64,000 nt of DNA from Bacilli bacterium. Its GTDB lineage: Bacteria > Bacillota_I > Bacilli_A > ML615J-28 > CAG-698. The notes below the pieces were generated by a model that worked only from the letters and a program-made list of their open reading frames with translations, did no database searches and had not been told where the DNA came from. Numbering within the stretch: position 1 is the stretch's first letter; each line of letters opens with the position of its first letter. This document shows positions 12,980-34,141 of the stretch, piece by piece. The translations under genes were made by a program, and so were the position numbers. The DNA lies in assembly GCA_050953065.1 (NCBI GenBank), contig JBMNLZ010000003.1:384001-448000 (forward strand), in the 5' to 3' direction.

Positions 12980-12980
12980 A

Positions 12981-15900: not shown

Positions 15901-16187
15901 TATGTCTTACCTGTTCTTTTATCAACAATTGTAATTCTAGTAGTTTCTTCATTGATAAACATTTCAAAATTGTCATTTTCAGCAAACTTTTTATTATTAT
16001 CAAATGTTTCCATTGAAGATGCTTCAACAAAATCTTCTAGATTTATTTTTTTATTAGTAAAAGCTAATTCTTCTGCTAAAGCAATAGTACTAAGACCTCC
16101 AACAAAATAAACTAATAACGTAATCACTAAAACAATAACTAATAAAGAAGGAATAATATATTTAGCTTTTAAAAATCTCATAAACAT
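12981..16187 (-). CDS. Large membrane-anchored extracellular protein, DUF5696-like
   Basis: N-terminal TM; LPYF...GMLVVPDGSGAVIKFN, MYGRD, FPMYG, LTTFKQAQEIL, IPFYQLIISG, LKLLETG, VVYSNGVEILIN motifs; typical position after YIP1/NHL genes. Confidence 0.75.
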   Translation of the reverse strand: MFMRFLKAKYIIPSLLVIVLVITLLVYFVGGLSTIALAEELAFTNKKINLEDFVEASSMETFDNNKKFAENDNFEMFINEETTRITIVDKRTGKTYTTTNDDVSSAYGSHFRLFYYGANGTQITTGLNTMTDSVNFYNKTSNTYEKHYAINYIDDGVQISYDIGRFTQTYYPDKMRIEKMINQFIGNIRINQEYANVSIMDSFGDTMSIRVVRYREYQNSGTYSATTSNYDVAKYIHDNNYGDVNPLPETVEPDATNLYFNITYLTEEFVNGWGTTINATNYGEEGASPCIVNPFIYEGTKNSLFDGFYKIETDDQVNKDEEPDKYRFYKLKATSSTQFTALFNLLYETSERHLVNEKYVYDASLLDDQDKIDELVAAKSLNFDNLEDDPKYYLARRNAGYAARDEDGFIYDEDGLPIPAYYSIEEAYHENQYFGVEGDLVPVRFRVGMEVSLAKDYEGVKFMLLGDILKEGNGSLDYNDPYSHNYRLSYIDFLPYFTFNDEATSEGMLVVPDGSGAVIKFNNGAQELNYNDFRKRMYGRDMNIAPYQMPDSDNAEKLMFPMYGYIDTTNQKGVVGIVANGANSSVLDAGTLHDSQRGKPYNHAKFQTYFREMEEVAVGTNKWNTSKFNKWSTTLNTIDFQYDFIFLRANQLTYSKVAEVYRIYLVNKYLLEAHDTSANTLVDVNFLGAYERYILTLGVKHKIKSSLTTFKQAQEILEELMDYDIHNLSVSYRGWSEDALEFKARSNHKVAKVLGGVKGLNKFKDFLYQNNIDFYPEMNVTTNKGYDYSFGNMKYTGKSIGASYSTHYPYNLATKVQDKRTYIGTNYVSAKYYTSLVDTLLPSFKKLNSEGVYAVDLGNVKVSDYQRGAEVYAEVGCAYQKQALGMFKEEIGKVKLSAPFEYALSYVDYAVDVPIYSSQNPIIDYTIPFYQLIISGLFDYTGPAYNLTGDEQMELLKLLETGSNLQFVFSYEDPKILYDTRYNHYPQTYYANWKAKVVNTKETLDAVGIHGGRLVSHELVGGRTNVVKVVYSNGVEILINKSLTADYVDSINGITVKAKSYLVLSGGH

Positions 16188-16192
16188 CCCTC

Positions 16193-16882
16193 CTATAAAT
16201 ACCTCAGTGATATTTCACGATAAATGGTATATATGAAACCTATTATTGTTTGGAAAAGGTTGAAGCAAAGAAGTAGGATAAATGCAACTACCATCGCTGC
16301 AATTGCAGTAGCAACAATAGTAAGAATACATTTAAGTAAACCGTACTCATGAACTCCAATAATTCCAAAGAAAGCCATATATCCCATCATGAACACACCA
16401 AGACTATTTACTAAATGATATAAAGCCATCTCTTCTGCAACAAGCACATTGCTTAAAACCATTCCTATAATAGTAGTAAATATCATAGGATATAAGCAAT
16501 AACTTATCATTAAAAAGATATCTTTCATTTTTCCTTTACCATCAAACAAAGTCGCAACTGACCAGTTTGAAACAGTAAATAAAACAATCGGAGCAACAAC
16601 ATAAGCAATTTCTGCGAATGTGCTCAATTCATTAATATTTCTATCACTTACTAAGAATCCCAAAAATTGGAATTTTAGTATTTGAAGTAAAATAATCACA
16701 GCAATAAATGTTAAAGCTACTGACCATTTACCTCTATTTTCTCTTTTGAATTCATCAAAACCTTTAATTGGGTGAGCTAAAATATAACCAGGGAATTTAA
16801 CGAATTCTGCATAAAAATACTTTAATCTACTTTTTACTTTAGCACCAAAGCCAGTTTTATTATTTGTTTCAGTATTATTCAT
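16193..16882 (-). CDS. YIP1-family membrane protein
   Basis: HPIKGFDE, SNWSVATLFDGKG, YCLYP motifs; about 5 TM segments. Confidence 0.8.
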   Translation of the reverse strand: MNNTETNNKTGFGAKVKSRLKYFYAEFVKFPGYILAHPIKGFDEFKRENRGKWSVALTFIAVIILLQILKFQFLGFLVSDRNINELSTFAEIAYVVAPIVLFTVSNWSVATLFDGKGKMKDIFLMISYCLYPMIFTTIIGMVLSNVLVAEEMALYHLVNSLGVFMMGYMAFFGIIGVHEYGLLKCILTIVATAIAAMVVAFILLLCFNLFQTIIGFIYTIYREISLRYL

Positions 16883-18588
16883 TATTCATCACCTATTCCT
16901 GATTCTTCATAACCACCTCGTTTTACACGTTTGTATATACTCCATCCCACTAATCCTACGACTATAGCTAAGCCTATATACATTACAGTTGTAAAATATT
17001 CCTTGATTATCTCATCACGATATAATTTATAAGCACGTGAATATAAATCTTTATTATAACCAAGTTCGAAGTAATCTAATGCTTCAATGTATTCACCCTC
17101 ATACATTAAAGTCTTTCCAATACCAACATATGCATATTGATAGTTAGCATTTTTTTGAACAACTTTTCGCCATTCTCTTGCAGACTCAATATAGTCTCCA
17201 TCAACATAATACTTAACTGCTTTATTGATAATTGCTCCAATATCTGTTGGTTGGAAAACCATTAAAGCTTTTGAGTTTTTATCAATCAGTAAAACATTTT
17301 CACCTTGATAAACAAGTGCTACTGGATTATCAAGCTCATTAATTTGAGTTCCTTTTCCACCTGAAATATAAAGCAAGTTTCCTTCAGCATCATATGTAAA
17401 AAGTCTTCCGTTAGCTGAGTCTGCTACAGTATAAATTCCATAATCATTAACTGCAATTGCAGTTAAGTCAGGATGAGATGTTGCTTGAGTTGTTCTTAGG
17501 TATACTATATCTCCCTTAGGTACATTATAACCATTTCTCTTTAAAACATCACTTTCAGCTGGATTTAACTTCTTAATCATTGATCTATCGTTAGTTACAA
17601 GACCTTTTGTATTAGTAGTAGGACCAGCTGTTGTATAAATGAAGTTAGCGCTATCTATACAAAGAGAGTTAAAGATTTGGTTTAATACTTGCGTAGATTG
17701 AGAAAGTTGAGCCTCAGTTGCAAGATTTCTCCAGAATATTTCCCAAACACTTAAAGCAACTTTATTAACCCCAGTAAAACCATAAAATTCTCCAGTTGGA
17801 CTTAGTTTAATAATCCCTTCATTAATTCCTGAAGAAATTACATAAAGTCTTCCTGAACTATCTGCTACCATTTTGAAAGGTAAGAAAGCCTTTGTTTTAA
17901 AAGCATGCGCTTGTGGAGTTGAAATTACTCTAATAACTTTAAATGTATCACTATCTAAAACAATGACTTGTTGGTTATTAGTATCACAAATATAGATATA
18001 ATCTTCTCCTGTAGTTCTAACTACACCTCTAAAGACTCCATTTGGACCATTTAAAACAATACTAGCTCCAGTTGCTTGAAAATCTTCAAAGCTAACTAAA
18101 CCAACATTTGTTCCATCTACTTCTCTAATAATTAAAGGAGTTCTAATACCATTATTATTAGTATTAATCTTTAATGCTTCTTCATATGTAAACTTTGTTT
18201 TATCAAGTTCAAAGGCATCAATTACATAATCATCTTCTGGATTATCATCTACTCCCATTATTTTTAAAAGACTTAAATTCTTATCAAAAATAAACATCTT
18301 ATTAGAAATTGAGTCTACTAAATAAAGTTTTTCTTCATATCCTAATAATTCATGGAATTCATTTCTTAATTCTTTTTTAAACAAAAACAAATCAGCTGGT
18401 GATCTAAAGTCAGCATCTCTTAACCCTAAATCTCCAAACTTATAAACATTTGACACAGTAAGACCTTTATCAGAATAGATTGGTTTATTATCATGAGTAT
18501 AAATATATCCTGTTTCAGCCTTTACTATCGGCAAAGTACACATTAAAACCATTAAAATAAATACAATTAAAATTCTTCTTTTTATCAT
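16882..18588 (-). CDS. NHL/beta-propeller repeat protein with TPR-like segment and C-terminal TM
   Basis: Signal peptide; repeats LYLVDS, IYICDTNN, YTVADSANGRLFTYD; NANYQYAYVGIGK TPR-like segment; C-terminal anchor. Confidence 0.8.
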   Translation of the reverse strand: MIKRRILIVFILMVLMCTLPIVKAETGYIYTHDNKPIYSDKGLTVSNVYKFGDLGLRDADFRSPADLFLFKKELRNEFHELLGYEEKLYLVDSISNKMFIFDKNLSLLKIMGVDDNPEDDYVIDAFELDKTKFTYEEALKINTNNNGIRTPLIIREVDGTNVGLVSFEDFQATGASIVLNGPNGVFRGVVRTTGEDYIYICDTNNQQVIVLDSDTFKVIRVISTPQAHAFKTKAFLPFKMVADSSGRLYVISSGINEGIIKLSPTGEFYGFTGVNKVALSVWEIFWRNLATEAQLSQSTQVLNQIFNSLCIDSANFIYTTAGPTTNTKGLVTNDRSMIKKLNPAESDVLKRNGYNVPKGDIVYLRTTQATSHPDLTAIAVNDYGIYTVADSANGRLFTYDAEGNLLYISGGKGTQINELDNPVALVYQGENVLLIDKNSKALMVFQPTDIGAIINKAVKYYVDGDYIESAREWRKVVQKNANYQYAYVGIGKTLMYEGEYIEALDYFELGYNKDLYSRAYKLYRDEIIKEYFTTVMYIGLAIVVGLVGWSIYKRVKRGGYEESGIGDE

Positions 18589-18600
18589 TTCAATTCACCT

Positions 18601-20115
18601 CTACTTCATACCCGAATGAGCCATCGTTTCCATAATTTGACTCTGAGATATTATAAATATAGTAATTGGAACCGAAATCATAATCAAACTAACTGCCGCT
18701 AAAACCCCAACACGAGCAGGTCCTGCTGTTGAAATTTGAACCAGTGCATAACTTACCATTTTTAAGTCTTCACGATAAATAAATGTAGATCCATCAGCTG
18801 CCCATAATCTTTGGAATACCAAAATAATTAAAGTAAGCCAAGCAGGTTTTACTAAAGGCATAACAATAGAAAACCATATCTTAAATTCTCCAGCTCCATC
18901 AATCTTAGCTGACTCAATTAACGAAGTCGGCACTTGAGACATAAACTGTTTCATTAAGAATAGCCCTAACGGGAAGGATATCATCGGCAAGATCATAGCC
19001 CAATAAGTATCTATCAATCCAATATAGTTAAATACAATATAGTTAGGAATACTTGTTACTTCATGAGGGAACATCAATGAATAAACAATTAGTCCAAAGA
19101 TAATTGATCCACCAGGAACTTTATATTTTGCTAGTGCATAAGCACACATCGAAGCAAATATAACGTGTCCAATTGTACCCATAATAGTTATAAAAATTGT
19201 ATTAAAGAAATATCTTGAGAAAGGTACTAAAGAAGCACCTAAAACTCCACCTAAATCCTTAAAGTTTTCTAAACTAGGGTTTCTCGGGAAAAATCTTGGT
19301 GGGAATAAGAATAATTCATCAAGTGGTTTAAATGCATTTGAAATTGTTAGAATTAATGGTAACAAACTAAATGCTCCACATAATGCTAAGAATAAGAATA
19401 AGAAAAAATCTCCAGTCTTTGATCTATTAAGTCTTTTCTTTTTCTTAGATTTCATTTTTATTTTCAAAGCATTAATTTCAGCAAATGGTCTAGAATCTAC
19501 TACTCTATGTAGTTTAATTTTAGCTCCATCAACTTCTTCTAAGCCTTCTTCTTGCATCTTAGTTTTTAATTCTAAATAGAATTCATATTTTGCTAACTCT
19601 ATTAAAGGGATAACCCAACAAAGCAAAACACCTAAAGTTATGATTCCAAGTAAAATTAATGGTAAATAACTAAGATATAATTTAAACAATTCCTTTTTAT
19701 GTCCATGCATCATCCTTTTACTTTTTTGAATTGCTTTAGATGATCCTATCTTTGGTTCATCAAGCAAAATGTAAAAAGACATTGAATAACTTAAGGCTTT
19801 AACAATTCCAGGAATTATTAATAAAATTGTCCAAAAAATTTGATAAAGTGTCTTTTTAATATATAAAACTATTTTATCGTTAATATGATTAAATTCTGAA
19901 AATAGTTTCTTTAAAGATATTTCTTCACCCTTAGAGATACTAACTATAACACTTGAAAATCCCATTAATAATGGCCCGCCAATAATCAAGGCACCAAGTA
20001 GTGGAGGAATAATCCAAGCTGCTAAAATTATCAACCCACAGATAAAGCTAATTAACGCTGCTGTTTTAAAATTGGGTTTAATCTTACTTAATGCAAGACT
20101 TCTATATTTTTTCAT
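18601..20115 (-). CDS. DUF975-like membrane domain fused to a CUT1 ABC permease
   Basis: N-terminal ~190 aa with PGIVKALSYSMSFYILLDEP...AIQKSKRMMHGHKKELFKL (DUF975); C-terminal permease with SNAFKPLDELF and EAA loop LIESAKIDGAGE. Confidence 0.8.
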   Translation of the reverse strand: MKKYRSLALSKIKPNFKTAALISFICGLIILAAWIIPPLLGALIIGGPLLMGFSSVIVSISKGEEISLKKLFSEFNHINDKIVLYIKKTLYQIFWTILLIIPGIVKALSYSMSFYILLDEPKIGSSKAIQKSKRMMHGHKKELFKLYLSYLPLILLGIITLGVLLCWVIPLIELAKYEFYLELKTKMQEEGLEEVDGAKIKLHRVVDSRPFAEINALKIKMKSKKKKRLNRSKTGDFFLFLFLALCGAFSLLPLILTISNAFKPLDELFLFPPRFFPRNPSLENFKDLGGVLGASLVPFSRYFFNTIFITIMGTIGHVIFASMCAYALAKYKVPGGSIIFGLIVYSLMFPHEVTSIPNYIVFNYIGLIDTYWAMILPMISFPLGLFLMKQFMSQVPTSLIESAKIDGAGEFKIWFSIVMPLVKPAWLTLIILVFQRLWAADGSTFIYREDLKMVSYALVQISTAGPARVGVLAAVSLIMISVPITIFIISQSQIMETMAHSGMK

Positions 20116-20129
20116 CTTGTCCTCCTTTC

Positions 20130-21206
20130 CTATGTGCCGACCTTGCGGATAATCTTTTGAATTGCTTTATTAAGTAGTATCGCTGTTACGAATAATAGTG
20201 TTGCGATGGCTGAGGCATATCCCATTTCAAATCTAACACTACCATAATCGGTTAAGTGGTTGATGATTGTATGTCCTGAATATTCAATTGAAGGGAATCC
20301 TGCCAAAGCTGTTGAAATCGCACCAACACCAAGAGAAGCTGAAATTTGAATAACGGCACTAAATGTTAATTGTGGTTTCATATTAGGTAATGTAATAAAC
20401 CATAATTCTTGCCATCTATTTCTAACACCATCCACGGCAGCTGCTTCATATTGAGTTTTATCAACGCTCTTTAATCCCGCAATTAAAGCTAGGAAGTTAA
20501 CACCTAAACTCATCCATAATTGTACTACAATAATAATCGGCAAAATATATTTTGAGTTTTGAAGCCAAGTAATTGGTTCTGCAATAAATCCAAATTGGAT
20601 TAAGAATGAGTTCGCATAACCATAAATATCACTATTGAAAATCAAAGTCCAAATAAGAATCGCATTTCCTGCTAAAGAAGGAGCATAGAATGCTAAAGTA
20701 ATAAATGGTTTTATTTTTGGAGGTAATTCATTAATTAACCAAGCAAATACGAAACTCAGTAAATATCCAATCGGTCCAGTAACAACTGCAATAATCAAAG
20801 TGTTTTTAACTGCAGTTATAAAAATATCATCATCTAAAAACAAAGTTAAATAGTTTGAAAAGCCTACCCAACGTGGTGCTTCTAAAAGGTTAAAATAAGT
20901 AAAACTTAATCCAAAGCTCATTACAACTGGTAAAACTGTAAAAACAGTGAATAGTAGTACATAAGGAAACATCATTAGATATAGAGTTCTATTTAAATAT
21001 AGTTTTCTTCTAAAAGGTTTCTTTCTACTCCACAGATCAATTTTCTTTCCAGTGCGCTCTTTCCAAGCAATAAATCTTTTCCATAAATCTTTTAAAGTTT
21101 TCTTACCTTGAGAAGAATCATTAGACTTTGTTGATTCACTAATTTCTTCAAGATTATTGTTTTCTTCTTTAGAAACATTTAAATCTTTATCAATTACATT
21201 TTCCAT
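20130..21206 (-). CDS. CUT1 sugar ABC permease (MalF-like)
   Basis: SFTYFNLLEAP, QLWMSLG, YEAAAVDG, RFEMGYASAIA motifs. Confidence 0.92.
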   Translation of the reverse strand: MENVIDKDLNVSKEENNNLEEISESTKSNDSSQGKKTLKDLWKRFIAWKERTGKKIDLWSRKKPFRRKLYLNRTLYLMMFPYVLLFTVFTVLPVVMSFGLSFTYFNLLEAPRWVGFSNYLTLFLDDDIFITAVKNTLIIAVVTGPIGYLLSFVFAWLINELPPKIKPFITLAFYAPSLAGNAILIWTLIFNSDIYGYANSFLIQFGFIAEPITWLQNSKYILPIIIVVQLWMSLGVNFLALIAGLKSVDKTQYEAAAVDGVRNRWQELWFITLPNMKPQLTFSAVIQISASLGVGAISTALAGFPSIEYSGHTIINHLTDYGSVRFEMGYASAIATLLFVTAILLNKAIQKIIRKVGT

Positions 21207-21220
21207 TGATCTTCTCCTTT

Positions 21221-24200
21221 CTAATCAAGTCCAAACTCAGCGCGTTTTCTAGCAATCTCACTGTTTATAATTTGGATGTATTGTTCTAGTGTTTCGCGTG
21301 GTTCTTTATCTTTATTTACAACTTCACGGAAGGCATTTTCTAAGTTACGTCCTGTATAATATCCACCAGGAACTTCTGGTACACCAACAGTTTTTTTCCA
21401 TTGAGTAGTTAATACTTCAATTTCTTTTGCTGTCCATGCCATTCTTCTAAATGCTTTAATATTAGGAGTATTATGACGAGCTGCTGGCCCTAAAACTGAT
21501 TCCAATTCACGAGCATAAGCAAATTGTGTTTCTTCACTTGTCCACCATTTCATAAATTCCCAAGCAGCTTCTTTTTCTCTAGCTTGAGCCATCATTACAA
21601 CAGCAGTTCCACCTGCTGCACCTCTATGATCTAGAGTACCATCTTCTCTAATTGTTCCAGGAAGTAGGGCAAAGTCCCATTTACCTCTAATCTCTGGCGC
21701 AGAAACCATCAAAGTATTATACATTTCATAGTTAGCAATTCCAATTGGAGTTTCCCCAGTTCTAAAACGGTTAAAGAATGATGCTGCAAGAGGGAAACTA
21801 TATTCACTATAAAATCTTGACCAAGTATCAAAAGCATTCATTGCTGCAGGGCTATCAAAAGCTGATTCACGATTACCATTCTTATAGAATGTTCCATCTT
21901 GTTGATAAAGCATTGAAGCAAAGATTTGGTTAACTACAGAGTTAGCTAAAACTGTATTAAGTGGTAAATAAAATTGCAAGTTTTTAAGTTGTAATTCTGG
22001 AATAATTTCAATTACATCTTCCCAAGTCCAAGGATTTTCTAAAGTAGGACGTTTCCATTCATATTCATTGAAAATATCTGTTCTATAAAATGTTACTAAA
22101 AATGACTGAGTATTAGGTAAAGCATAATATGCACCGTTTAACTCATATGGAACCATGGCACTTGCTTGGAAGTTTCTATTTTCATCTTCTGGATCTACAT
22201 TTGCAGTACATGTTCCACGAGCAATTTCATCCGCTGAACAAATTCCAGTTGTTTCATAGAATCCCTCATATTTTGAAATATCTTCAATTGCATTACGAAG
22301 TGCATAGTTAATTGGAAGTCCATTTGGAACGTTGATTGCTACATCAGGCCCTCTTTTTGCAAGTGTTGCTGGAAGTAGTACACCAGGTGCTACTAATTTC
22401 AAGCTAACGTTTGCATGATCAAATGTATCTAAAATTAGATTACTCAAAGCATTTGCTTGTTCACGTCCAGCTGTCTCACTTGTTAAAAACCAAACTTGAA
22501 TTGTTGGTAAATTAGCTTTAGCTTCAGTTACACCAATACTTTCATAATCAAAGAAGAATGATTTGAAGAATGATTTAATACTAAACCAACTACCTGCAAA
22601 GAAATTAGGATTTGCTTTTGGCAAAGCATTTTTCCTGCTTAAACTTGATTTATCTGAATGAATAAATAATTGATCAACTACAATTGATTGTTCACTGATT
22701 TGTAAAATCCATGTTCCTAAAGCTGAAATGTTGTTACTATAATCTTTAAGACGTCTTTGAATCGTTCTAACGTTATTAACAAATGAATCAAGTTGTAGAG
22801 CCATTCTATCAAGACTTGCTGTCATATCGCTTTTCCCACCAGATAATTCAGCTAAGATTCTATTAACATCTCTTAACTCTTTTGCACATTTTGCAAATGT
22901 TTCTTTTAATCCAACAATGCTTTTGCCATCTTCATAATAAACAGAAACAAAATCAGCTAAGTTTTCTACTAAGTAATAATCAATATATGGGTCTGGGTTT
23001 AAAGTAGTAACTGCAATAATTCTACGATAAACTCTATTTAACTCATCAATTACTGTATTTACTCTACTAACTAAACTACTGTAATCTCCTAAAGTTGCTT
23101 CCATTGTAATAGTATTTTTACCAGCATTTAAGTGGAAATAATATGGAATTTCTTTTCCTGTCTCATCAAAGCCGCCCAAAGTCATGATTTTCCAATCTCT
23201 ACTAAACTTGTATTTAGTATTTAGTGCTTCATCAAAAGGTACCTCACCATTTATTAAAACTTTTCTTGTCGTATAAACACCTCTTGAAACTCCTTGTTTT
23301 GCTCTAAATGAAATTTGATATAATCCTTCTTTTTCTACATCTACTTTCCAAGAAATCCAATCGCCAGGTGAAGACCATTTAGTTCCACCAATTGCATTAT
23401 ATCTAATCCTTACAGGGTCACACGGAGAGTTCTTCGCACTCGTTCTATCATTTACTGCATAAAGTGTCGCAGATGAAGATGTTCTAATGTTTGGGTCTTC
23501 TGCTTCGTATAAAATCATCGTATCATCAACTTTATCAGCATCATCAAACTGACCTATATAATCACTATAAGACATATAATCAGTTTTAGCACAAATATCA
23601 ATTGCAAAAATACTCATTGGTTCTCTAATTGATTCAATTGTGATTGTATTTTCACCTTCAAGCAAATGAATTAAATAAGGTTCAGTAACATACCCTAAAT
23701 CATCTACAACATAGGCTCTAGTAATTTTTGGTTTTTCAATTTGAGTTGGTTTCATATCATTGCCCATGGCATCCATAAAGAACATTGATCCTTTAGATGC
23801 ATCAATTGGACCATCTCCCCAAGTTCTTGAAAACACAATATTTTTCAAAGCCTCATATGGAGTTACGCCATTGATTTTAATACTTCTTTCAATTGATGCA
23901 GAACCACCTTTCTCAGGATAATAACTAAGTCTAATATTATAATATCCTGCATCTGGTACTGTAAATTTCCAAGTTGCACTACCTACTTCTGAAGTATAAA
24001 AAGGCTTAACTCCATTTACGATTGTTGCAAGATTAGCAACATCTGTAAAATCAGAGTGTACTAAGTCAGTATTATTTGTTGTATCAATAGTAATATTATT
24101 ATTTGGAGTAATCATTTCATATGCTTTTAAATACTCCCCATATTCGCCAACTATTTCATAATCTCCAGGCACTGTTGCTTTTGTATAAACATGGCCCGAA

Positions 24201-24313
24201 GCATAACTTGTAATCACACTACTTAAAAATAATGCAACTAAAAGAACTAGTATAATTAGCAAGATACTGCGTTTAACTAATTTAGGTGTGATCAATCCCT
24301 TAAGTTTTTTCAT
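21221..24313 (-). CDS. Giant (1030 aa) solute-binding protein with N-terminal CBM-like jelly-rolls and a helical linker
   Basis: N-terminal anchor; two CBM6/35-like segments (WKFTVPDAGYYNI; WKVDVEKEGLYQI); C-terminal SBP motifs YALPNTQ, FYRTDIF, APEIRGKWDF, AWEFMKWW, PEVPGGYY. Confidence 0.85.
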   Translation of the reverse strand: MKKLKGLITPKLVKRSILLIILVLLVALFLSSVITSYASGHVYTKATVPGDYEIVGEYGEYLKAYEMITPNNNITIDTTNNTDLVHSDFTDVANLATIVNGVKPFYTSEVGSATWKFTVPDAGYYNIRLSYYPEKGGSASIERSIKINGVTPYEALKNIVFSRTWGDGPIDASKGSMFFMDAMGNDMKPTQIEKPKITRAYVVDDLGYVTEPYLIHLLEGENTITIESIREPMSIFAIDICAKTDYMSYSDYIGQFDDADKVDDTMILYEAEDPNIRTSSSATLYAVNDRTSAKNSPCDPVRIRYNAIGGTKWSSPGDWISWKVDVEKEGLYQISFRAKQGVSRGVYTTRKVLINGEVPFDEALNTKYKFSRDWKIMTLGGFDETGKEIPYYFHLNAGKNTITMEATLGDYSSLVSRVNTVIDELNRVYRRIIAVTTLNPDPYIDYYLVENLADFVSVYYEDGKSIVGLKETFAKCAKELRDVNRILAELSGGKSDMTASLDRMALQLDSFVNNVRTIQRRLKDYSNNISALGTWILQISEQSIVVDQLFIHSDKSSLSRKNALPKANPNFFAGSWFSIKSFFKSFFFDYESIGVTEAKANLPTIQVWFLTSETAGREQANALSNLILDTFDHANVSLKLVAPGVLLPATLAKRGPDVAINVPNGLPINYALRNAIEDISKYEGFYETTGICSADEIARGTCTANVDPEDENRNFQASAMVPYELNGAYYALPNTQSFLVTFYRTDIFNEYEWKRPTLENPWTWEDVIEIIPELQLKNLQFYLPLNTVLANSVVNQIFASMLYQQDGTFYKNGNRESAFDSPAAMNAFDTWSRFYSEYSFPLAASFFNRFRTGETPIGIANYEMYNTLMVSAPEIRGKWDFALLPGTIREDGTLDHRGAAGGTAVVMMAQAREKEAAWEFMKWWTSEETQFAYARELESVLGPAARHNTPNIKAFRRMAWTAKEIEVLTTQWKKTVGVPEVPGGYYTGRNLENAFREVVNKDKEPRETLEQYIQIINSEIARKRAEFGLD

Positions 24314-26160
24314 TTTTTTACCCCTTCTATGTATTTTAATCTTTCTTCTGAAAATACAATTAGTTTTTCAATATAATCTAACGTTTCATTTAACATGCTT
24401 TCTTTGTTTCTTTGAAGCCATAAAGTTTTTAAATCATTTTTAATTTTTAAAGCGTCTTTTAAGGCTTCTTTTAACAGTGTGATTCTTACAGTTTTTTCTA
24501 AAGAATCATTCCCACAAACATTAATTTTTAGTAATAAAGAAATCATCTCAATTGTCCAAACAACTTCATCTTTAATTAAAGAATCATTAAATTTGATAAG
24601 CTCAATTTCTTTTTTCTTATAGTTTAAATATTCTTCTGCACTTTGATATTTCTTATAACTCAAAGTATTATATTTCATCTTTTCTTTAACATATTCTATC
24701 CTATTTTCTTCTTTGAAAGAATAAGTTATCCAAAGCAACATATAAAATGTAGCAGTCCCATTACCAATATAAGCATTTTCAAAGCGATTGATTGTTCCTA
24801 AATCCATAATAGCATCTGCTATTAGGTTTTCTTTATCTTTGAAAATAAATCTATTTAAATATTGTTTAACTGATAGATAAACTCCTTCTTCACATCTGTA
24901 ACTCATTAAGCCAGCATAGACAAGTGGTGCAAAACTAAATGGTAACATCTGCATATGTCCGACATCTCCCCAATCAGTTAATAAGATTCCTTCACCACCG
25001 TTATCCTTAACAGCCCAACAAGCGTTCGCAATGTTCTCAATCCAATCACTTTGTCTTAGTGATAAACTACACCAAGAAGTAGTTCCAGGAGCTGCCATGA
25101 ATTTTACTTTGGCTTTTTTTAGCTTTTTAATATTTTTAGAGAAAGAATAAAAAGCATCATAGCCCCAATCAATAAAAATCATATCTTTTGGAAGCTTTTT
25201 AAATAACTCAGGATGATTATTTAAAACATCTCCCCAAATCAAAGGAATTTTTTTATATTTTTTTATCTCTTTATAAGCTTTTAATGTATAGTCTAAATAA
25301 ACCTTGCCAAGACCTACTTTCTCACATTCAGCCTTTGACTTACCTTTACCTAGTTCAAATGGTTCATCAAAGTTCATATTGAAGTATTTTGAATTAGAAT
25401 GAGGCAACATATCTTGATACATTTTCTTTAATAACTCTAAAGATTTTGGATCAAGTGGATTGAGTGTACTTGGCGCTCTATGAGTCCCCCATAAATGAAT
25501 TCCTTCAGGACACTCTGCCAAACTAGAAAACTCATCTTTTTTAAGCCAAGCGGCCATATGACCAAAACCATTTTGATTTGGAACTAAATCTATAAAATGT
25601 TTATTAGCATAGTCTTCAATTGCTTTATATTCTTCAACTGTAATATATGAATCCTTTTTTAAATAATCTTTAAAACTTTGATATTCAAAAGAAAAACCTT
25701 CAACATATAATTCTAAATGATTCATTTTTAAATCACTCATAATATCAATAATTTTAAAAACAGTTTCTATTTTAGGAACTTTATTTCGGCTTATGTCATA
25801 CATAAAGCCTCTTATTTTTAAATCTGGTTCATCATAGATTTCTAGACATTCTATTTGATTGTTTTTAATAATTTGTTTTAAAGTCTTAACTGCATAATAT
25901 GCACCTGGTGCATCTTTATGATAAATCGTAATAACATCTGGTTTAACTTCAATTTTATATGCTTCAGCACTTAATTTTTTGTCAATAAAAAAACGAACAT
26001 CGGCTTTTTTAGATTTACCTACTTGCAAATTTAAAAAAGAATCCAATTCTTTCTTAACTATTTCATTGGGCTTGTCAAAAAAAGCAATGCTCTTTTCTTT
26101 CATTTTGTAAACGTCGTTATTATATTTTATTTCTTTTACCTTAGGAAATATATTTACCAT
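24310..26160 (-). CDS. GH20-family beta-N-acetylhexosaminidase, no signal peptide
   Basis: IYDEPDLKIRGFMYDISR, VPNQNGFGH, catalytic NFDE, IWGD, DWGY, LLTDWGD motifs. Confidence 0.88.
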   Translation of the reverse strand: MVNIFPKVKEIKYNNDVYKMKEKSIAFFDKPNEIVKKELDSFLNLQVGKSKKADVRFFIDKKLSAEAYKIEVKPDVITIYHKDAPGAYYAVKTLKQIIKNNQIECLEIYDEPDLKIRGFMYDISRNKVPKIETVFKIIDIMSDLKMNHLELYVEGFSFEYQSFKDYLKKDSYITVEEYKAIEDYANKHFIDLVPNQNGFGHMAAWLKKDEFSSLAECPEGIHLWGTHRAPSTLNPLDPKSLELLKKMYQDMLPHSNSKYFNMNFDEPFELGKGKSKAECEKVGLGKVYLDYTLKAYKEIKKYKKIPLIWGDVLNNHPELFKKLPKDMIFIDWGYDAFYSFSKNIKKLKKAKVKFMAAPGTTSWCSLSLRQSDWIENIANACWAVKDNGGEGILLTDWGDVGHMQMLPFSFAPLVYAGLMSYRCEEGVYLSVKQYLNRFIFKDKENLIADAIMDLGTINRFENAYIGNGTATFYMLLWITYSFKEENRIEYVKEKMKYNTLSYKKYQSAEEYLNYKKKEIELIKFNDSLIKDEVVWTIEMISLLLKINVCGNDSLEKTVRITLLKEALKDALKIKNDLKTLWLQRNKESMLNETLDYIEKLIVFSEERLKYIEGVKK

Positions 26161-27685: not shown

Positions 27686-27749
27686 TTTATTACCTCTAAA
27701 CAAATTTATTTGATAACTCATTTTAACAAATATTTAAACAATTAGCAAG

Positions 27750-27796: not shown

Positions 27797-29101
27797 TTAA
27801 ACTGGCTTTACTTCTTTTGTCCAAATGGTTTTTAATAATTTCCTACCTTCAACAAGGGCAACAACATCTTCTTTAACAAAAGAATTATAAGTAAAATAAA
27901 TTGTTCCAGAAATATTGTCATAATTTTGATTATACCTAAGTTGATTAATTATCTCTTCTGGATTACTCCAATTTCCTTTATCGCTATAGCGATAAAATGC
28001 TTGACCAATATATAATTTCGTATTAGTTTCTTTACAAATTCCACTCCACCATTTTACTAAATCAGCATATTTTACTAAAGTGATTTCTTCTAAAGAACCA
28101 TCTTCTTTTGGTTTAGAATTATCTAAATCAAAATAAACTTGAGGTACTACGTAATCAATCCATTTTTCTTTCATCCATAAGTAAACATCTGCATAAAGTC
28201 TATCATAACATTGCAAGCATTTCTCATGATTATCAGACCCTTTATCCCAACCACCAACTCCAGATTCAAAATATTTTGAATGAGTTCTAAAAATACCAAA
28301 AGGACTGATTCCAAATTCTACCTTTTTAGGAAGTCTAGCTAACTTATCATGAATAAGTTTAATCATACGATTAACATTGTCTCTTCTAAAGTCACTCAAA
28401 GATTCATCATTTTTCTTCCATTTTAAATATTTTTCTTGTTCTTTATCATCACAAATTTCCTCATAAGGATAAAAATAATCATCGATATGAACAGCTTTTA
28501 TATCATAGTTTTCAGCAATTTCTAAAACTGAATCAGAAACAAATTCCATTACTTCTTCACTTGATGGGTCTAGAATTAGTTTTGTTTCTGAAGTTTCAAT
28601 TACTAAATCAGGACGCTTGCGAGCAAAGTTTTTCTCACTTAATGTTTTTAAAAAGTCATCTTTATTAGTATTTAAATCTTTTAATCTTTTTTGACAAACA
28701 CGATATGGATTAATCCAAGCATGAACTTCAATGTTTTCCTTTTTAGCTTCTTCTATAAAGAAACCAAAAACATCAAAGCCAGGATATTTATCCTCAATTC
28801 CAGTAATATATGCACTCCAAGGATTTAACTTTGATTTATAAAATGCATCATTTGTTGGTCTTGCTTGAAAAATAACTGTATTCATTTTATATTCTTTAAC
28901 ACGTTTTATAACACTTTTTAAATATTCTTTATAACTTTCAACACTAGTCATTTTAGCTACATCAATATTAGCAACAGTCGAAAACCAAACACCACGCAAT
29001 TCTTCTTGCTTTTCTTTATATTCATCTGGTATTAAAACAGCCTCATCGCTTCCATAATAAGTAACAAAACCTTCTTTTTTAAACTTAGCAATTTTTTTCA
29101 T
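27797..29101 (-). CDS. Glycosyl hydrolase-like 10 family (YngK/YddW-DigH-like), no signal peptide
   Basis: ELRGVWFSTVANID, NTVIFQARP, VHAWINPYR, HIDDYFYPY, FGISPFG, WIDYVVPQVY motifs. Confidence 0.88.
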   Translation of the reverse strand: MKKIAKFKKEGFVTYYGSDEAVLIPDEYKEKQEELRGVWFSTVANIDVAKMTSVESYKEYLKSVIKRVKEYKMNTVIFQARPTNDAFYKSKLNPWSAYITGIEDKYPGFDVFGFFIEEAKKENIEVHAWINPYRVCQKRLKDLNTNKDDFLKTLSEKNFARKRPDLVIETSETKLILDPSSEEVMEFVSDSVLEIAENYDIKAVHIDDYFYPYEEICDDKEQEKYLKWKKNDESLSDFRRDNVNRMIKLIHDKLARLPKKVEFGISPFGIFRTHSKYFESGVGGWDKGSDNHEKCLQCYDRLYADVYLWMKEKWIDYVVPQVYFDLDNSKPKEDGSLEEITLVKYADLVKWWSGICKETNTKLYIGQAFYRYSDKGNWSNPEEIINQLRYNQNYDNISGTIYFTYNSFVKEDVVALVEGRKLLKTIWTKEVKPV

Positions 29102-29102
29102 T

Positions 29103-29795
29103 TTATATCTCCTTATTTCTTATAAATTTTTGATAGTCTTCAACTGCAAAAGCAGCAGCATTTTTCGTTTTATTTAAAGCACCCCTTACAAAAGATAAAT
29201 GCGTATAATAATCATAATATTTAAATGAAGGACTATTCATAATAAACCAATGTTTTTGAATTGCTTTACACCATAAATCATATCCTTCAGTCCCATCAAT
29301 ATAAACATATGGAACAAAGCCATCTCGATCTTCCCAGTTTTCACAGTAATATATAGGAGCATAATGTCTTTCACCTTCTACCTTATCGCCCATATCAACG
29401 CCAGCATAAAAAGCTGCATCAACTACGTTTAAATAAGTATTTCTATGATCTTTATGCATACTGTTTTTCCAATGCGTAAAGATAGCACTTGGTTTATATT
29501 TTCTAATTAAACTAGCAATTCTAAACTTAACTTCATCATTAACTGGTAACTCTCCATCAGGATATTCAAAAACAATTGCATCCCCTTTTAACATACGAGC
29601 AAATTCGCTAGCTTCTTTTTCTTTTTGAAGCCTATATTCTTCTACACTCATACCTTTAGGATTACCACGCTCTCCTCCAGTTAAAGCAATAGTTACAATT
29701 TTATTTCCCTTTAAACTTTCAGTAGCAAGAATTAACCCTGCCGTTAATTCCATATCACCAACATGGCCACCAATTGCTAAAAATGTTTTACTCAT
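29103..29795 (-). CDS. PIG-L/LmbE-family N-acetyl sugar deacetylase
   Basis: GGHVGDME (variant of HPDD), LTGGERG, IRKYKP, FTHW...HKDH motifs. Confidence 0.85.
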   Translation of the reverse strand: MSKTFLAIGGHVGDMELTAGLILATESLKGNKIVTIALTGGERGNPKGMSVEEYRLQKEKEASEFARMLKGDAIVFEYPDGELPVNDEVKFRIASLIRKYKPSAIFTHWKNSMHKDHRNTYLNVVDAAFYAGVDMGDKVEGERHYAPIYYCENWEDRDGFVPYVYIDGTEGYDLWCKAIQKHWFIMNSPSFKYYDYYTHLSFVRGALNKTKNAAAFAVEDYQKFIRNKEI

Positions 29796-29798
29796 AGA

Positions 29799-30782
29799 TT
29801 ATAAATCCTTTCTTAAAATCGCAAAAGATTGCACTAATCTAAAACCTGCATAAAAATAAAGATTTCTTGCAGGATTTTCACTACCTGTAAAAAGTGTCAT
29901 AAACTTAGCACCATTTTGTTTTGAAATATAACACAAATAACAAAATAGCGTTTTACCTAATCCTCTTCCTTGAACTTTAGGATGAACTCCTACTCCATCA
30001 AAATGCCCTCTCCCACCATCCTCAGTATAAACAGCACCAGTCCAGCCTAAAATTTCTCCATCCTTTTCAACAATTAGCATCGGTTTTGGATCTTTTTTTG
30101 CTAGATTATTTTCAGTTACTGCTTTCCAACCAGGATTATTTAATGCCTCAAACAATTCATTAAAACCATGATGTTTTTTAGAATCATACATTGTTATATT
30201 ATAACCATCAGCTTTATTTTGTTCAATTTGTTCTACTACTTTTTGTGGTAATTCATAATTTTGTAAGTCTAAGAAATAACCATCTAATTGTCCATTATTT
30301 GTATAACGATTATTCATAAACAAAAAATAATATTTTGAATTATAAGGAATCGCTGGAGCCCCACCATGATAGGCATCCTCATTTGGAATTAACCATTTAA
30401 AATTAACTGGATTATAAAACATTAATCTAACAAACTTTTTACCCTTGTCTTTCAAAAAATCTTCTAAGGCTTTTAAAACAAGTGAACCATAACCATTTTT
30501 TTGATGTTCATTTTTAATAAAAACACATGTAATAAAACCAGGAGTTTCCTCAATGTTTTCATCATTTTTATTAATCATTGCATTCCCATAACCAATTGGT
30601 TCTCCTGCTAAAGTTATAGTCAAACTGCCTTCAGAATCATAGTTAGAATTTTTCATAAAAGTTTGTTTAAATAATTCAACTGTAAAAGGAGCATAAACTG
30701 AATTTCCTACTACATCACTATTCCAAATTGAAACTAGCGTTGATACATCTTCATCTTTAAATTTTCTAATTTCCATTAACAT
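29799..30782 (-). CDS. Second tandem-GNAT N-acetyltransferase
   Basis: Motif A twice (HQKNGYGS, VQGRGLGK); LFTGSENPARNLYFYAGF. Confidence 0.85.
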   Translation of the reverse strand: MLMEIRKFKDEDVSTLVSIWNSDVVGNSVYAPFTVELFKQTFMKNSNYDSEGSLTITLAGEPIGYGNAMINKNDENIEETPGFITCVFIKNEHQKNGYGSLVLKALEDFLKDKGKKFVRLMFYNPVNFKWLIPNEDAYHGGAPAIPYNSKYYFLFMNNRYTNNGQLDGYFLDLQNYELPQKVVEQIEQNKADGYNITMYDSKKHHGFNELFEALNNPGWKAVTENNLAKKDPKPMLIVEKDGEILGWTGAVYTEDGGRGHFDGVGVHPKVQGRGLGKTLFCYLCYISKQNGAKFMTLFTGSENPARNLYFYAGFRLVQSFAILRKDL

Positions 30783-30811: not shown

Positions 30812-31879
30812 TTAAGTAAAGTTAGCGATTATATAATTTCCAATTTTACTTCTAAAAGGAATTATCTTATTGTTTTCTCTTGTTGGATGAACTCTATTAC
30901 TTAACATACAAAAAGCAATTTTATTATCTCTATCAATAAATAAATTAGTCCCCGTAAAACCAGTATGTAAAATTGTATTAGGACTTGCTAAGTCTCCACA
31001 TGATGGATAATCACTCTTTAAGATCCACCCTAACCCTCTTTTACTACCAACTAAACTAATTCCTTCTTTTTCTTCTACTTGTGGGGTAAAAAGCAAATCA
31101 ATACTTGCTTTAGATAAAATGCGTCTACCTTTATATACTCCATTATTTAAAATCATTTCCATAAAGTTACCAATATCATCTGCTGTTGAAAATACTCCAG
31201 CATGTCCTGCAACACCACCTAAAATATAAGCTTTTTCATCATGAACTTTTCCACGTAATAAATCCTGACAAATAGCATCATTTCTTTTTTCAGTTGGAGC
31301 ACATCTTTCAGTATTTTTAGGATTATATGTTGTATCTTTCATATCAAGTTTTGAAAAAACATATAATTTAGCTGCTCTATCTAAACCCATTCCTGAAACT
31401 GTTTCAATTAGTTTCCCCAGCAAAATAAAACCGATATCTGAATATATTATCTTTTCACTTCTTCCTGCTTTAAGTGGTACTTTATAAGCAAAATCAAAAA
31501 CCTCTTCAGGCTTTGCTAGTGTATTAGCTTTAGGAATATCAGGTACTAAACCTGAAGTATGAGTCATTAAATCAAAGATAGTAATATCATCGTTTTTAAA
31601 ATCAGGCAAGTATTTACTAACACTATCATAAAGCCTTATTTTACCCGCTTCTAATAATTGCATTAAAAGTGTAGTTGTAGAAACAACTTTCGAAACTGAA
31701 GCCATATCATAAATTGTATTAATATAATTTTCTTCCTTTTTAGGAAGCAACGCTTTATACCCAAAAGCTCCAGTATAACGCCTCTTTCCTGCAATCAAAC
31801 AATAAGTCGCACCGGGAAAAACACCATCTTTAACAGCTTCTTCCATCAAATCATTAAACCCAATCATTTTAGAATTCAT
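30812..31879 (-). CDS. Beta-lactamase-family serine hydrolase, AmiE/YbbE-like muropeptide amidase
   Basis: SxxK (ASVSK), LMTHTSG, YSD, GKVHDEKA...GGVAGHAGVFS, HTGFTGT, SNRVHP; ATG at 31879. Confidence 0.82.
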   Translation of the reverse strand: MNSKMIGFNDLMEEAVKDGVFPGATYCLIAGKRRYTGAFGYKALLPKKEENYINTIYDMASVSKVVSTTTLLMQLLEAGKIRLYDSVSKYLPDFKNDDITIFDLMTHTSGLVPDIPKANTLAKPEEVFDFAYKVPLKAGRSEKIIYSDIGFILLGKLIETVSGMGLDRAAKLYVFSKLDMKDTTYNPKNTERCAPTEKRNDAICQDLLRGKVHDEKAYILGGVAGHAGVFSTADDIGNFMEMILNNGVYKGRRILSKASIDLLFTPQVEEKEGISLVGSKRGLGWILKSDYPSCGDLASPNTILHTGFTGTNLFIDRDNKIAFCMLSNRVHPTRENNKIIPFRSKIGNYIIANFT

Positions 31880-34046
31880 AAACTTTCCCCTTAAATCTAT
31901 TATAAAAATTATCAAATGTGATTTTTTTAATTACATTATCACTATAGCCTTTAACACGAAGCCTTTCAATTAAAAGATTAATTTCAGTTACTTTAGAAAT
32001 CTCTTTTGTATTAGAACTTGGAAAATCATCCAAATAATCCATAAAGTCTAACCCTAAACATACATTATCAATCCCAAGTGCATTAATAGCATATTCAATA
32101 TGTTTAATAAACATATCAATACTTTTATCTTCTTTTGAAATGAAATTTCCAACTAAAGTTAAACCTAATAAACCATCGGCTTCTTTTAATGCTTTTAATT
32201 GAGCATCATCTAAATTTCTTTTATGATCACATAGACTTCTAATATTTCCGTGTGAATAAATAATATTTTTATTTGTTAGTTTTAAAACATCAAAAAAACT
32301 TTGATAATTTAGATGAGCTAAATCAATTATCATATCAAGTTTTTCCATTTTTTTAATTAAATCTTTTCCTTTTTCAGTTAAGCCTCTTTCAGGATTGCCC
32401 TTTACTCCAGTAGCATAATCATTTTCTTCATTCCATGTTAACATTGCATGACGAAAACCTAATTTATATAAAGTATCTAAATCATTTATGCTTTTTAAAT
32501 TTCTTAACCCTTCAAAACCTAAAATCAATTTAAAATCAACTAATAATTTAAAATCAATTTGAGCAAGAGCCTTTTTAGATGCTTCAATTAAATCAAATTC
32601 ATCAGGCGAATATAGTGTCCAAAGTCCACCTTTAACTGATGTTTCTGATAATTGTTGCAAGTGAAAATCAAATCTATTTTCAATTCCCATTTTAGCCTTA
32701 TCATATAAATCATATAAGATATCAGTGTGAGTATCAAAGATAGGCAAACTTTTTTGATTAAAACTAGATAAAAGTTTATCATAACTTTCTCTTTTAATTG
32801 CTAGATTAACGTTATCCTCTTTTACAAAAACAACAGCTGGTCTAACATGAGAATTATAATTCATAGACATTGAATATCCATATGCTCCAGTTGAATAAAC
32901 AACTAAAATATCTCCTCTTTTAAAACTAGGCACTTCTACTCCTTGAGCTATGATATCACCACTCTCGCAACAAGGTCCAACAATATCACATTTAATAGTT
33001 TTTAACTCATTCATCTTATTAGCTACATCAACACTATATTTAGCTTGATATAAAGCAGGCCTAATATTATCATTCATTCCACCATCAACTGGTAAATATA
33101 TTTTCTTATTATAAGTTTCTTTCAAATCACCTATTGTATAAAGTGTACTACAAGCATCGCCTACAATACTTCTGCCTGGTTCAATCATTAAAGTATTTAA
33201 AGCAATTTTAAATTTATTAGTTAAATCTTCTACTTCTTTTACAACTTCTTTTAAAGTTTTTTCCAAATCAATTTCAGTATCTGTTTTTAAATATTTAATT
33301 CCAAAGCCTCCACCTAAATTAAGAACCTTCGCCTCAAAGTCATATTTTTCTTTTACATCTTTTAAAAACTCTACCATTGTTTTAGCTGAATTAATAAAAG
33401 AATCAGGAGTTGTTATTTGAGAACCAATATGAGCATGAAAACCATCTAATTCAATATAAGATGCATTTTTATAAAAGTCAATTATTTTTTCTATTTTTGC
33501 CTCATCAAAGATTGACTCTCCAAATTTAGAATCAACAGATGATGTTTGAATATATTCATGAGTATGAGCTGAAATTCCAGGGTTTATTCTAAATAAAGTT
33601 TTAACTTGTTTTTTGTTGATTCTAGCAATTTTTTCTAATCTTTCTAACTCTGGAATATTGTCTACAATAATATATTTTACTCCTAATTTAACTGCAAATT
33701 CTAATTCTTCATCCGTTTTATTATTTCCATGAAAAACTGCTTTAGAAAGAGGAAAGTTAGTTTTATGTAAAATATATAAATCTCCATAACTAACACTATC
33801 AATCCCAACATTATATTCTAATAAAATATCATTTAGATAACTTGAAAGAAAAGCTTTAGATGCATAATATATTTCACAATTAAACTTCTTACTTTTAAAG
33901 TTATTAATAAAAGTAGATATTTTATTTCTCAAATGCAATTCATCAAAAACCATTAAAGGAGTCCCATAAATTCTTGCTAAATCTTTAGCAGATTTTTTAC
34001 CAAAATATAATGCGTTTCCTTTAACACTCATTCCTAATGTTTTCAT
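31869..34046 (-). CDS. lysA: Diaminopimelate decarboxylase fused to an M19 membrane dipeptidase
   Basis: LysA part: YGTPL, YASKAF, FHGNNK, HAHIGSQ, NLGGGFG, EPGRS, DNIRPALY, CCESGD, GAYG. M19 part: FDTHTD, GFEG, LTWN, IIDLAH, YSH, RNL, GLDF. ATG at 34046 follows a GAGG RBS. Confidence 0.9.
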   Translation of the reverse strand: MKTLGMSVKGNALYFGKKSAKDLARIYGTPLMVFDELHLRNKISTFINNFKSKKFNCEIYYASKAFLSSYLNDILLEYNVGIDSVSYGDLYILHKTNFPLSKAVFHGNNKTDEELEFAVKLGVKYIIVDNIPELERLEKIARINKKQVKTLFRINPGISAHTHEYIQTSSVDSKFGESIFDEAKIEKIIDFYKNASYIELDGFHAHIGSQITTPDSFINSAKTMVEFLKDVKEKYDFEAKVLNLGGGFGIKYLKTDTEIDLEKTLKEVVKEVEDLTNKFKIALNTLMIEPGRSIVGDACSTLYTIGDLKETYNKKIYLPVDGGMNDNIRPALYQAKYSVDVANKMNELKTIKCDIVGPCCESGDIIAQGVEVPSFKRGDILVVYSTGAYGYSMSMNYNSHVRPAVVFVKEDNVNLAIKRESYDKLLSSFNQKSLPIFDTHTDILYDLYDKAKMGIENRFDFHLQQLSETSVKGGLWTLYSPDEFDLIEASKKALAQIDFKLLVDFKLILGFEGLRNLKSINDLDTLYKLGFRHAMLTWNEENDYATGVKGNPERGLTEKGKDLIKKMEKLDMIIDLAHLNYQSFFDVLKLTNKNIIYSHGNIRSLCDHKRNLDDAQLKALKEADGLLGLTLVGNFISKEDKSIDMFIKHIEYAINALGIDNVCLGLDFMDYLDDFPSSNTKEISKVTEINLLIERLRVKGYSDNVIKKITFDNFYNRFKGKVYEF

Positions 34047-34141
34047 AAGTTTCCTCACTAAAAATTAATTAAACTATCAAATCATATTATAACACAATTT
34101 CTATAAAATAAATTGTTTTCTTTAAAACTTTTTAAATAAAA

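Follow-up and report, generated by a model that had tools for sequence, protein, structure and literature searches.

The window analysed here comprises 64,000 nucleotides (nt) of contig JBMNLZ010000003.1 from the Bacilli bacterium assembly GCA_050953065.1, and the subject of this work is a gene within it in which a diaminopimelate decarboxylase (LysA) continues in a single reading frame into a renal-type dipeptidase of family M19. As outlined in Table 1, this LysA-M19 fusion gene heads a 34-kb block on the minus strand (334-34046). Since MurQ, AnmK and NamZ, all encoded in this block, act only on muramic acid, the block is a peptidoglycan-fragment catabolic locus. The genome carrying it (1.55 Mb in 3 contigs, 93.9% complete, guanine-cytosine content ~24-36% in 2-kb windows) has relatives labelled as Acholeplasmataceae, Mollicutes, Tenericutes or Bacilli metagenome-assembled genomes (MAGs), and the stretch recurs in metagenomes of digesters, sludge and bioreactors from 12 studies.

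Table 1 Features of the fusion gene and of the surrounding locus (positions in the window; scores in bits, with the model cut-off after "vs").
Feature	Position	Strand	Evidence and remarks
LysA-M19 fusion gene	31869..34046	(-)	725 aa from likely start ATG 34046; stop 31869-31871; junction bridged by contigs of 3 studies
Diaminopimelate decarboxylase (LysA) part, ~aa 1-427	32766..34046	(-)	TIGR01048 and PDB matches
Linker SFNQKSLP, ~8 residues	32742..32765	(-)	site of lysA stop and M19 start in split relatives
M19 (renal-type) dipeptidase part, ~aa 436-725, short Lmo2462-like form	31872..32741	(-)	PF01244 229.6 bits
Beta-lactamase-fold serine hydrolase (AmiE/PBP4B-like)	30812..31879	(-)	PF00144 191 bits; ATG 31879 overlaps fusion end by 11 nt
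Two-domain GNAT acetyltransferase	29799..30782	(-)	Pfam
PIG-L/LmbE-type deacetylase or amidase	29103..29795	(-)	PF02585 67.5 bits
GHL10 glycoside-hydrolase-like protein	27797..29101	(-)	PF02638 181.8 bits
DUF6273 protein	26345-27721	(-)	within locus
GH20 hexosaminidase	24310..26160	(-)	Pfam
ATP-binding cassette (ABC) uptake genes	10849..24313	(-)	large solute-binding protein 21221-24313; permeases 20130-21206, 18601-20115, 11861-12979, 10849-11913
DUF5696 protein, 1068 aa	12981-16187	(-)	within locus
GH3 NagZ-like hexosaminidase	9273-10781	(-)	NF003740 204.3 vs 207, just under cut-off; PF00933 272 bits
NagB	8564-9286	(-)	TIGR00502 307.8 vs 236.9
NamZ	3948-5087	(-)	PF07075 278 bits
NagZ	2378-3940	(-)	NF003740 219 vs 207
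AnmK	1211-2362	(-)	NF007148 401 vs 387
MurQ	334-1245	(-)	TIGR00274 356 vs 302

In the list of open reading frames (ORFs), the open frame at the fusion spans 31869..34058 on the minus strand and starts with GTG (729 amino acids, aa). The ATG at 34046, with a gaggaa box in front of it, is the likely translation start and would give a protein of 725 aa, the length also found for the closest relative, P0001. The preliminary description of this DNA had LysA running without a stop or an internal Shine-Dalgarno sequence or ATG into M19 between 31869 and 34046, which agrees with the single 725-aa frame in extent and coordinates; the junction, YDKLLSSFNQKSLPIFDTHTD, is free of stops, ATG codons and Shine-Dalgarno-like runs. 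Contigs of three runs from three studies cross the junction region (~32740-32770) with neither a differing letter nor a gap (X3 record 7, 31700-33776; X5 record 17, 32609-33283; X7 record 26, 32526-33295). Furthermore, the domain architecture recurs in relatives, all three Pfam domains being present in 116 of the 120 best protein clusters at lengths of 686-744 aa. When 1.84 billion representatives were searched, only one sequence among the best 150 (P0016, 732 aa) covered both halves. The fusion is real, yet confined to one clade, or one 50%-identity cluster.

The first half was matched by the Pfam models Orn_Arg_deC_N (aa 48-299, 151 bits) and Orn_DAP_Arg_deC (aa 301-391, 69 bits). The diaminopimelate decarboxylase of ~430 aa that had been described from the sequence was borne out by the NCBIfam lysA equivalog TIGR01048, which covers aa 16-431 and whose score of 417.5 bits (419.2 when the genome was searched) exceeds the cut-off of 297.9. 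All of the 14 best PDB sequence matches of this half are diaminopimelate decarboxylases, headed by 1hkv with 256 bits over aa 22-427. Among 43 fused proteins the positions K64, H206, E289-R292, R329, Y333, C360-E361, D364 and Y389 are invariant. The pyridoxal phosphate (PLP) lysine and the conserved HIGS, EPGR, DNIR..Y, CESGD and TGAY motifs of LysA have identical counterparts in the alignment with 1hkv. Elsewhere the genome encodes one more PLP decarboxylase of this fold, a distant one (G000:C3:248079-249152 (-), a 379-aa frame with 67.4 bits to lysA).

The second half carries Peptidase_M19 at aa 509-722, where PF01244 (gathering cut-off 26) was matched over profile positions 105-317 of 319. 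The M19 dipeptidase of the preliminary description was thereby recovered with one peculiarity, namely that the first 104 profile positions match weakly (20.1 bits); the HxD motif of this N-terminal third is kept (IFDTHTD) and lies directly at the M19 start. The genome has no further M19, and its one lysA over the cut-off is likewise that of the fusion. The nearest solved chains are those of Listeria, 3neh and 3lu2 (112 and 111 bits). The zinc-ligand positions H440, D442, E512, H578 and H599 do not vary across 43 fused proteins and 11 orthologues; the same holds for R610 and D667, which correspond to human R230 and D288. At the position of human His152, all sequences (11 of 11 and 43 of 43) have Trp (LTWN; TWN for THN), as does Lmo2462. 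The correspondence of the zinc ligands was set by the motif and by alignment to PDB chains rather than to the human chain itself; the human ligands are H20, D22, E125, H198 and H219, with the human numbering given in the accessible part of PMC9305348. The half thus shares with human DPEP1, Sco3058 and Lmo2462 (3lu2/3neh) the five zinc-ligand positions and the equivalents of R230 and D288, whereas it differs from human DPEP1 in being a short form of ~290 aa with Trp for His152, cytoplasmic and fused to LysA. Judging from these conserved residues, both halves look active, and both active sites are under selection in the fused proteins.

An AlphaFold model of the fusion reached a predicted local distance difference test score (pLDDT) of 90.3 and a predicted template modelling score (pTM) of 0.64, with block means of 79 for aa 421-430 and 84 for aa 431-440. 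In the model each half folds well, and little is said on the mutual position of LysA and M19. A complex prediction of split LysA with split M19, run with no controls, gave a score of 0.00 and a mark of 0.32, which speaks neither for nor against binding. Metatranscriptome contigs (run X17) lie on each half of the fusion, none of them spanning the junction, and such libraries can contain DNA. The promoter/terminator scan returned 52 promoter-like sites versus 48.1 expected and 2 terminator-like sites versus 2.2 expected and is evidence neither way; the terminator-like sites, which lie on the minus strand at 34443-34412 and 26353-26324, would flank the unit on both sides. No lysine riboswitch was found at Rfam gathering scores.

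With respect to the gene order, the fusion had been said to head an operon with an AmiE-like amidase, and this was confirmed: the ATG of the next gene (31879) lies 11 nt before the fusion stop. The gaps preceding the double GNAT, PIG-L and GHL10 genes are 29, 3 and -3 nt. The AmiE-like gene is encoded on the same strand and in the same locus as MurQ, NagZ and NamZ. For the assignments in Table 1, MurQ, AnmK, NagZ and NagB exceed NCBIfam cut-offs, and NamZ, GH20, GHL10, PIG-L and PF00144 exceed Pfam cut-offs. The uptake region also holds the DUF5696 gene, a Yip1-domain protein and an unassigned 568-aa ORF with one sub-threshold TPR_2 match; further down the minus strand, a second double GNAT and another binding protein are listed between NagB and NamZ.

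In related loci this arrangement is largely preserved. The order lysA/M19, beta-lactamase fold, GNAT, PIG-L, S66, GHL10, GH20, solute-binding protein is mostly kept in 20 of 20 loci that reach downstream; the beta-lactamase-fold gene is kept in 18 of the 20, and not all have GNAT and PIG-L. In 18 loci a gene of ~305-329 aa (253 in one) stands between PIG-L, or GNAT if PIG-L is missing, and GHL10; in L009 it is confirmed by Pfam as an S66 LD-carboxypeptidase, and L033 has a gene of similar size, placed three genes past GHL10. The operon double GNAT of L024 (13300-15222) is fused to an S66 LD-carboxypeptidase (640 aa, Pfam), a hint that the stem peptide or products of it may be substrates of the GNAT as well. 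A further S66 match lies within a 654-aa open frame of G026 (C3, ~41310-41666). In 19 of the 20 related loci reaching that point no DUF6273 orthologue was found between GHL10 and GH20; L011 has an unassigned 350-aa gene there. On the other side of the fusion, a Dus gene adjoins lysA in most kin, and here ~8.9 kb lie between them, holding two Big_2 surface proteins (1130 and 1334 aa), a GDPD gene and, just upstream of the fusion, a small bacterial signal recognition particle RNA (34152-34247 (-), RF00169 46.1 bits vs 40).

The distribution of the relevant genes was determined in 57 genomes of the family, including our own, from 18 genera; these genomes are kin and mostly MAGs, and the counts are not independent events. 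An M19 orthologue was present in 50 of the 57 and lysA over the cut-off in 46. MurQ (over cut-off) was found in 41, dapF (over cut-off) and S66 in 39 each and MraY (E at most 1e-15) in 21, so that the family appears to mix walled and wall-less members. By comparison, dapA exceeded its cut-off in 5 genomes, and dapB in the same 5. Both genes are missing from 41 of the 46 lysA genomes (28 of 31 among those at least 90% complete), and in these 41 LysA can consequently act only on scavenged diaminopimelate. MraY is missing as well from 27 of the 41, and 31 retain dapF, by which LL-diaminopimelate from some walls would be usable too. Across the order, the fusion was matched in 97 of 106 genomes and dapA over the cut-off in 8 of 106, two of these with an internal stop.

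In our own genome none of three wall genes was found above its threshold: MurE reached 58 bits against a cut-off of 257, and neither PF00905 (penicillin-binding protein (PBP) transpeptidase) nor MraY was found in this 93.9% complete genome, in line with the earlier suggestion that destroying diaminopimelate makes most sense for a cell that builds no diaminopimelate wall. The earlier statement that the window holds no dap biosynthesis genes is correct but does not extend to the genome, in which dapA and dapB are adjacent on contig C1 and dapF lies on C3. The presence of all three is half of what had been named as a refutation of lysine salvage, namely a full de novo pathway with no activity on stem peptides. 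For the conversion of tetrahydrodipicolinate to LL-diaminopimelate, DapH reached 39 bits versus 232 and DapL 98 versus 593 and 41 versus 365 in the own genome, so that the de novo route may be incomplete. Upstream of dapA-dapB, 275 nt from dapA, lie a 378-aa GNAT-like gene and an M20 amidohydrolase (G000:C1, L007:10886-13120 (-); TIGR01891, 239.7 bits), both candidates for an overlooked acyl branch of diaminopimelate synthesis. In the same region (G000:C1, L007:13130-15108 (-)) a serine-palmitoyltransferase-like gene (NF047600, 570.7 bits, cut-off 640) stands beside a 3-ketodihydrosphingosine-reductase-like gene (258.5, cut-off 400), a pair that may point to sphingolipid synthesis in a wall-less Bacilli lineage.

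Regarding the two halves, fused and split forms coexist in the family. Among 25 species-level loci with an orthologue (L009-L033), the complete fused frame occurs in 9, in addition to the window, and separate lysA and M19 genes in 12; 4 loci are cut by contig ends that leave the state unreadable. In 8 of the 12 split loci the two frames overlap or abut, with a Shine-Dalgarno-like run within the lysA end where the junction was inspected; the M19 gene mostly starts with MKIFD(T/V/L)H. For the 46 lysA genomes of the family the tally is 27 fused, 17 adjacent (coupled where inspected) and 2 undecidable at contig ends. Every lysA-bearing family genome with a callable contig therefore has lysA and M19 adjacent or fused, and no family genome has lysA over the cut-off apart from M19; a second lysA-like match below the cut-off lies elsewhere in G040. 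The split in G023 consists of one in-frame TAA. A phylogeny of the LysA part with 21 ingroup rows and 4 clostridial outgroups, five partial loci being left out, requires 3-4 changes between the fused and the split state, at least 2 of them forced by well-supported branches; on this tree the fusion is made or broken repeatedly.

The sister family offers a hint at the origin of the pair. There, the fusion query was matched in 47 of 49 genomes, and where both halves were listed they lay mostly on different contigs. In all five genomes inspected M19 stands within the operon and lysA elsewhere; the neighbours of lysA in the one locus scanned are pyruvate kinase, dUTPase, RsmD-like and CoaD-like genes. 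In four of the five the operon reads beta-lactamase fold, GNAT (in two), PIG-L, large GHL10, M19, GHL10, GH20, solute-binding protein, and in G059 M19 is found with the downstream operon part only. In a sixth genome, G074, lysA lies inside the operon between S66 and M19. Extra large GHL10 paralogues of 730-985 aa occur on either side of M19 in the sister-family loci L098, L102, L104 and L106. Because the sister family keeps M19 in the operon and lysA elsewhere, M19 seems to be an old member of the wall-fragment operon, beside which lysA would have been recruited and to which it would later have been fused.

The locus can be compared with two kinds of known systems. Muropeptides are rescued in Bacillus subtilis by the murQ-murR-murP-amiE-nagZ-namZ (ybb) operon and in Escherichia coli by murQ-murP-yfeW. 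Common to these and to the present locus is the joint encoding of MurQ, NagZ, NamZ and a beta-lactamase-fold hydrolase of AmiE/PBP4B type. In contrast, the owner here has no wall to rebuild, uptake is of the ABC type instead of the phosphotransferase system, AnmK, GH20, GHL10, PIG-L and two double GNATs are added, and LysA-M19 stands at the head. Murein peptides are broken down in E. coli and B. subtilis by LdcA/YkfA, MpaA or YkfC, the YcjG/YkfB epimerase and PepD. The aim of freeing the amino acids of the stem peptide would be the same, and most kin operons have an LD-carboxypeptidase; here, however, the own genome has no M14 peptidase, the family has no consistent NlpC/P60 (24 of 57 genomes), and M19 stands where the epimerase and PepD, or MpaA, are expected, with no search for the epimerase made. 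With canonical LysA the first half shares the equivalog-level score and full-length similarity to solved enzymes, whereas in 41 of 46 family genomes it occurs without dapA and dapB and beside a peptidase in a catabolic operon. NamZ of muropeptide rescue is treated in the accessible part of PMC8054146.

Taken together, we consider it probable that the fusion forms the module for the peptide end in a locus that scavenges peptidoglycan, in a wall-less, Acholeplasma-like bacterium of anaerobic digesters, and serves to turn diaminopimelate into lysine. In the proposed scheme, muropeptides would be imported by the ABC systems and their glycan dismantled by NagZ, GH20, NamZ and GHL10; (anhydro-)N-acetylmuramic acid and N-acetylglucosamine would then enter glycolysis via AnmK, MurQ and NagB. 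The stem peptide would be freed by the AmiE/PBP4B-like hydrolase and its D-Ala removed by the LD-carboxypeptidase where present. The M19 part would hydrolyse an L-D peptide bond of the remaining stem peptide, and the released meso-diaminopimelate (mDAP) would be decarboxylated to L-lysine by the LysA part. The direction of flow, the AmiE-like step and the bond cut by M19 are the parts of this scheme that we infer. In our own genome LysA probably draws on diaminopimelate of both kinds, salvaged and self-made.

For the bond cut by the putative M19 peptidase, the candidates are mDAP-D-Ala, gamma-D-Glu-mDAP and L-Ala-D-Glu with or without mDAP attached. M19 enzymes favour substrates in which an L-residue precedes a D-residue whose carboxylate is free, and Sco3058 reportedly prefers L-Xaa-D-Xaa. 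Such a preference fits mDAP-D-Ala, L-Ala-D-Glu and also L-Ala-D-Glu carrying diaminopimelate on the gamma-carboxyl. No description of the substrates of the short Lmo2462-like M19 family was found in the literature searched. Since there is no M14, no consistent NlpC/P60 and no other obvious candidate, M19 may be the enzyme that frees diaminopimelate. Tentatively, and with more doubt than confidence, it can be proposed that M19 is a new stem-peptide hydrolase which frees mDAP from mDAP-D-Ala or gamma-D-Glu-mDAP in place of MpaA/YkfC-type enzymes and which forms with LysA a two-step 'diaminopimelate harvester', by which dead walls would be the lysine source of a whole wall-less or nearly wall-less order without dapA and dapB.

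Several observations weigh against the scavenging scheme. The own genome has dapA, dapB and dapF over their cut-offs (347, 176 and 197 bits) and a single lysA over the cut-off, so that salvage is not required here, LysA being needed for any self-made lysine. The S66 LD-carboxypeptidase was found neither in the own genome, the window included, nor in its one congener. No dedicated gamma-D-Glu-mDAP peptidase was found; M14 had no match in the own genome, where NlpC/P60, not consistent in the family, occurs only inside frames of 3107 and 1212 aa. The AmiE-like gene scored 168.4 bits against PBP4B (NF002968), below the cut-off of 385, and its best PDB match had 64 bits, with no close solved relative. 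M19 occurs without lysA in G013 and G016 and hence needs no LysA, and the fusion itself may be nearly neutral in view of the 3-4 switches and the single TAA in G023. Finally, the absences in the survey are conditional on genome completeness and on the first-look filter of the search, among family members that are kin and mostly MAGs. The preliminary description, which had proposed lysine from stem peptides in a wall-less cell, is accordingly upheld in part: the locus content, the missing wall genes and the 41 of 46 kin without dapA and dapB support it strongly, whereas the genome's own dapA, dapB and dapF and the missing LD-carboxypeptidase do not. The two NlpC/P60 domains of the own genome lie at G000:C3:8572-8847 (-) and G000:C2:500304-500615 (+), and their long frames may encode giant surface proteins that attack the walls of other bacteria.

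The alternative that retains most weight, although we regard it as unlikely overall and as plausible only for the own genome taken by itself, is that LysA is merely the last step of de novo lysine synthesis, that M19 has its separate function in the operon and that the fusion arose by a near-neutral loss of a stop between coupled genes. It would account for dapA, dapB and dapF next to one lysA over the cut-off, for the repeated switching on the tree and the single TAA of G023, for lysA being unlinked to M19 in the sister family, and for a pTM of 0.64 despite the high pLDDT, no fixed packing of the domains being predicted. It does not account for the 41 of 46 lysA genomes that lack dapA and dapB and keep lysA, always beside M19, nor for the movement of lysA into the operon both in this family and, independently placed, in G074; moreover, with DapH and DapL not found, the de novo route of the own genome may be incomplete.

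A locus feeding on other N-acetylhexosamine polymers such as chitin or host glycans, with LysA-M19 unrelated to walls, is very unlikely. Loci for chitin and glycans likewise contain GH20, GH3, PIG-L, NagB and ABC systems of sugar type, but the muramic-acid-specific MurQ, AnmK and NamZ are all in the window, and the kin operon carries the S66 LD-carboxypeptidase. Still more improbable is a biosynthetic role in which M19 would substitute for the missing N-acyl-diaminopimelate deacylase (DapE/YkuR) and the fusion would join the last two steps of the pathway. Deacylases are among the members of the amidohydrolase superfamily, to which M19 also belongs, and neither DapH nor DapL was over the cut-off in the own genome; this candidate was nevertheless rejected, as an M20 amidohydrolase already lies upstream of dapA-dapB, M19 is far commoner in the family than dapA and dapB (50 genomes versus 5 of the 57), and the M19 of the sister family sits inside a glycan/peptide catabolic operon. 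The chance that assembly or sequencing falsely joined two genes is practically nil, for the split forms of 17 family genomes are outweighed by the identical contigs of three studies, by the fused frame in 26 other family genomes and by the three-domain clusters described above.

With respect to the literature, the search, which reached few subscription journals and no supplements, returned no description of a LysA-M19 fusion or of an orphan LysA as diaminopimelate salvage in Acholeplasmatales. According to the accessible part of PMC13198582, anaerobic ciliates gained lysA, pbp4b, NamZ, anmK, murQ and nagB-PIGL from bacteria, the same gene set in a wall-less feeder on bacteria; in that part, however, lysA is read as biosynthesis (amino-acid metabolism), with no fusion and no link to wall genes. 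In the accessible text of PMC4628116, free-living Acholeplasma were the first assimilators of 13C-labelled dead E. coli, and peptidoglycan is not mentioned. The available portion of PMC10868615 notes that related orders which synthesise a wall only in part would have to rely on scavenged muropeptides, and that of PMC4221730 places DapF of A. oculi in the aspartate pathway.

If the scavenging scheme is correct, it would give a genetic mechanism for the free-living, Acholeplasma-like life on dead bacteria in digesters and manure, for which PMC4628116, as far as its accessible text goes, showed assimilation and not how it is achieved. The short Lmo2462-like M19 family would be nominated for the breakdown of cell-wall peptides. 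The usual equation of the presence of lysA with lysine prototrophy would be wrong for an order in which 8 of 106 genomes have dapA over the cut-off. Of a biosynthetic pathway that was lost, the final enzyme would have been retained and rewired into a catabolic operon, with diaminopimelate as a nutrient.

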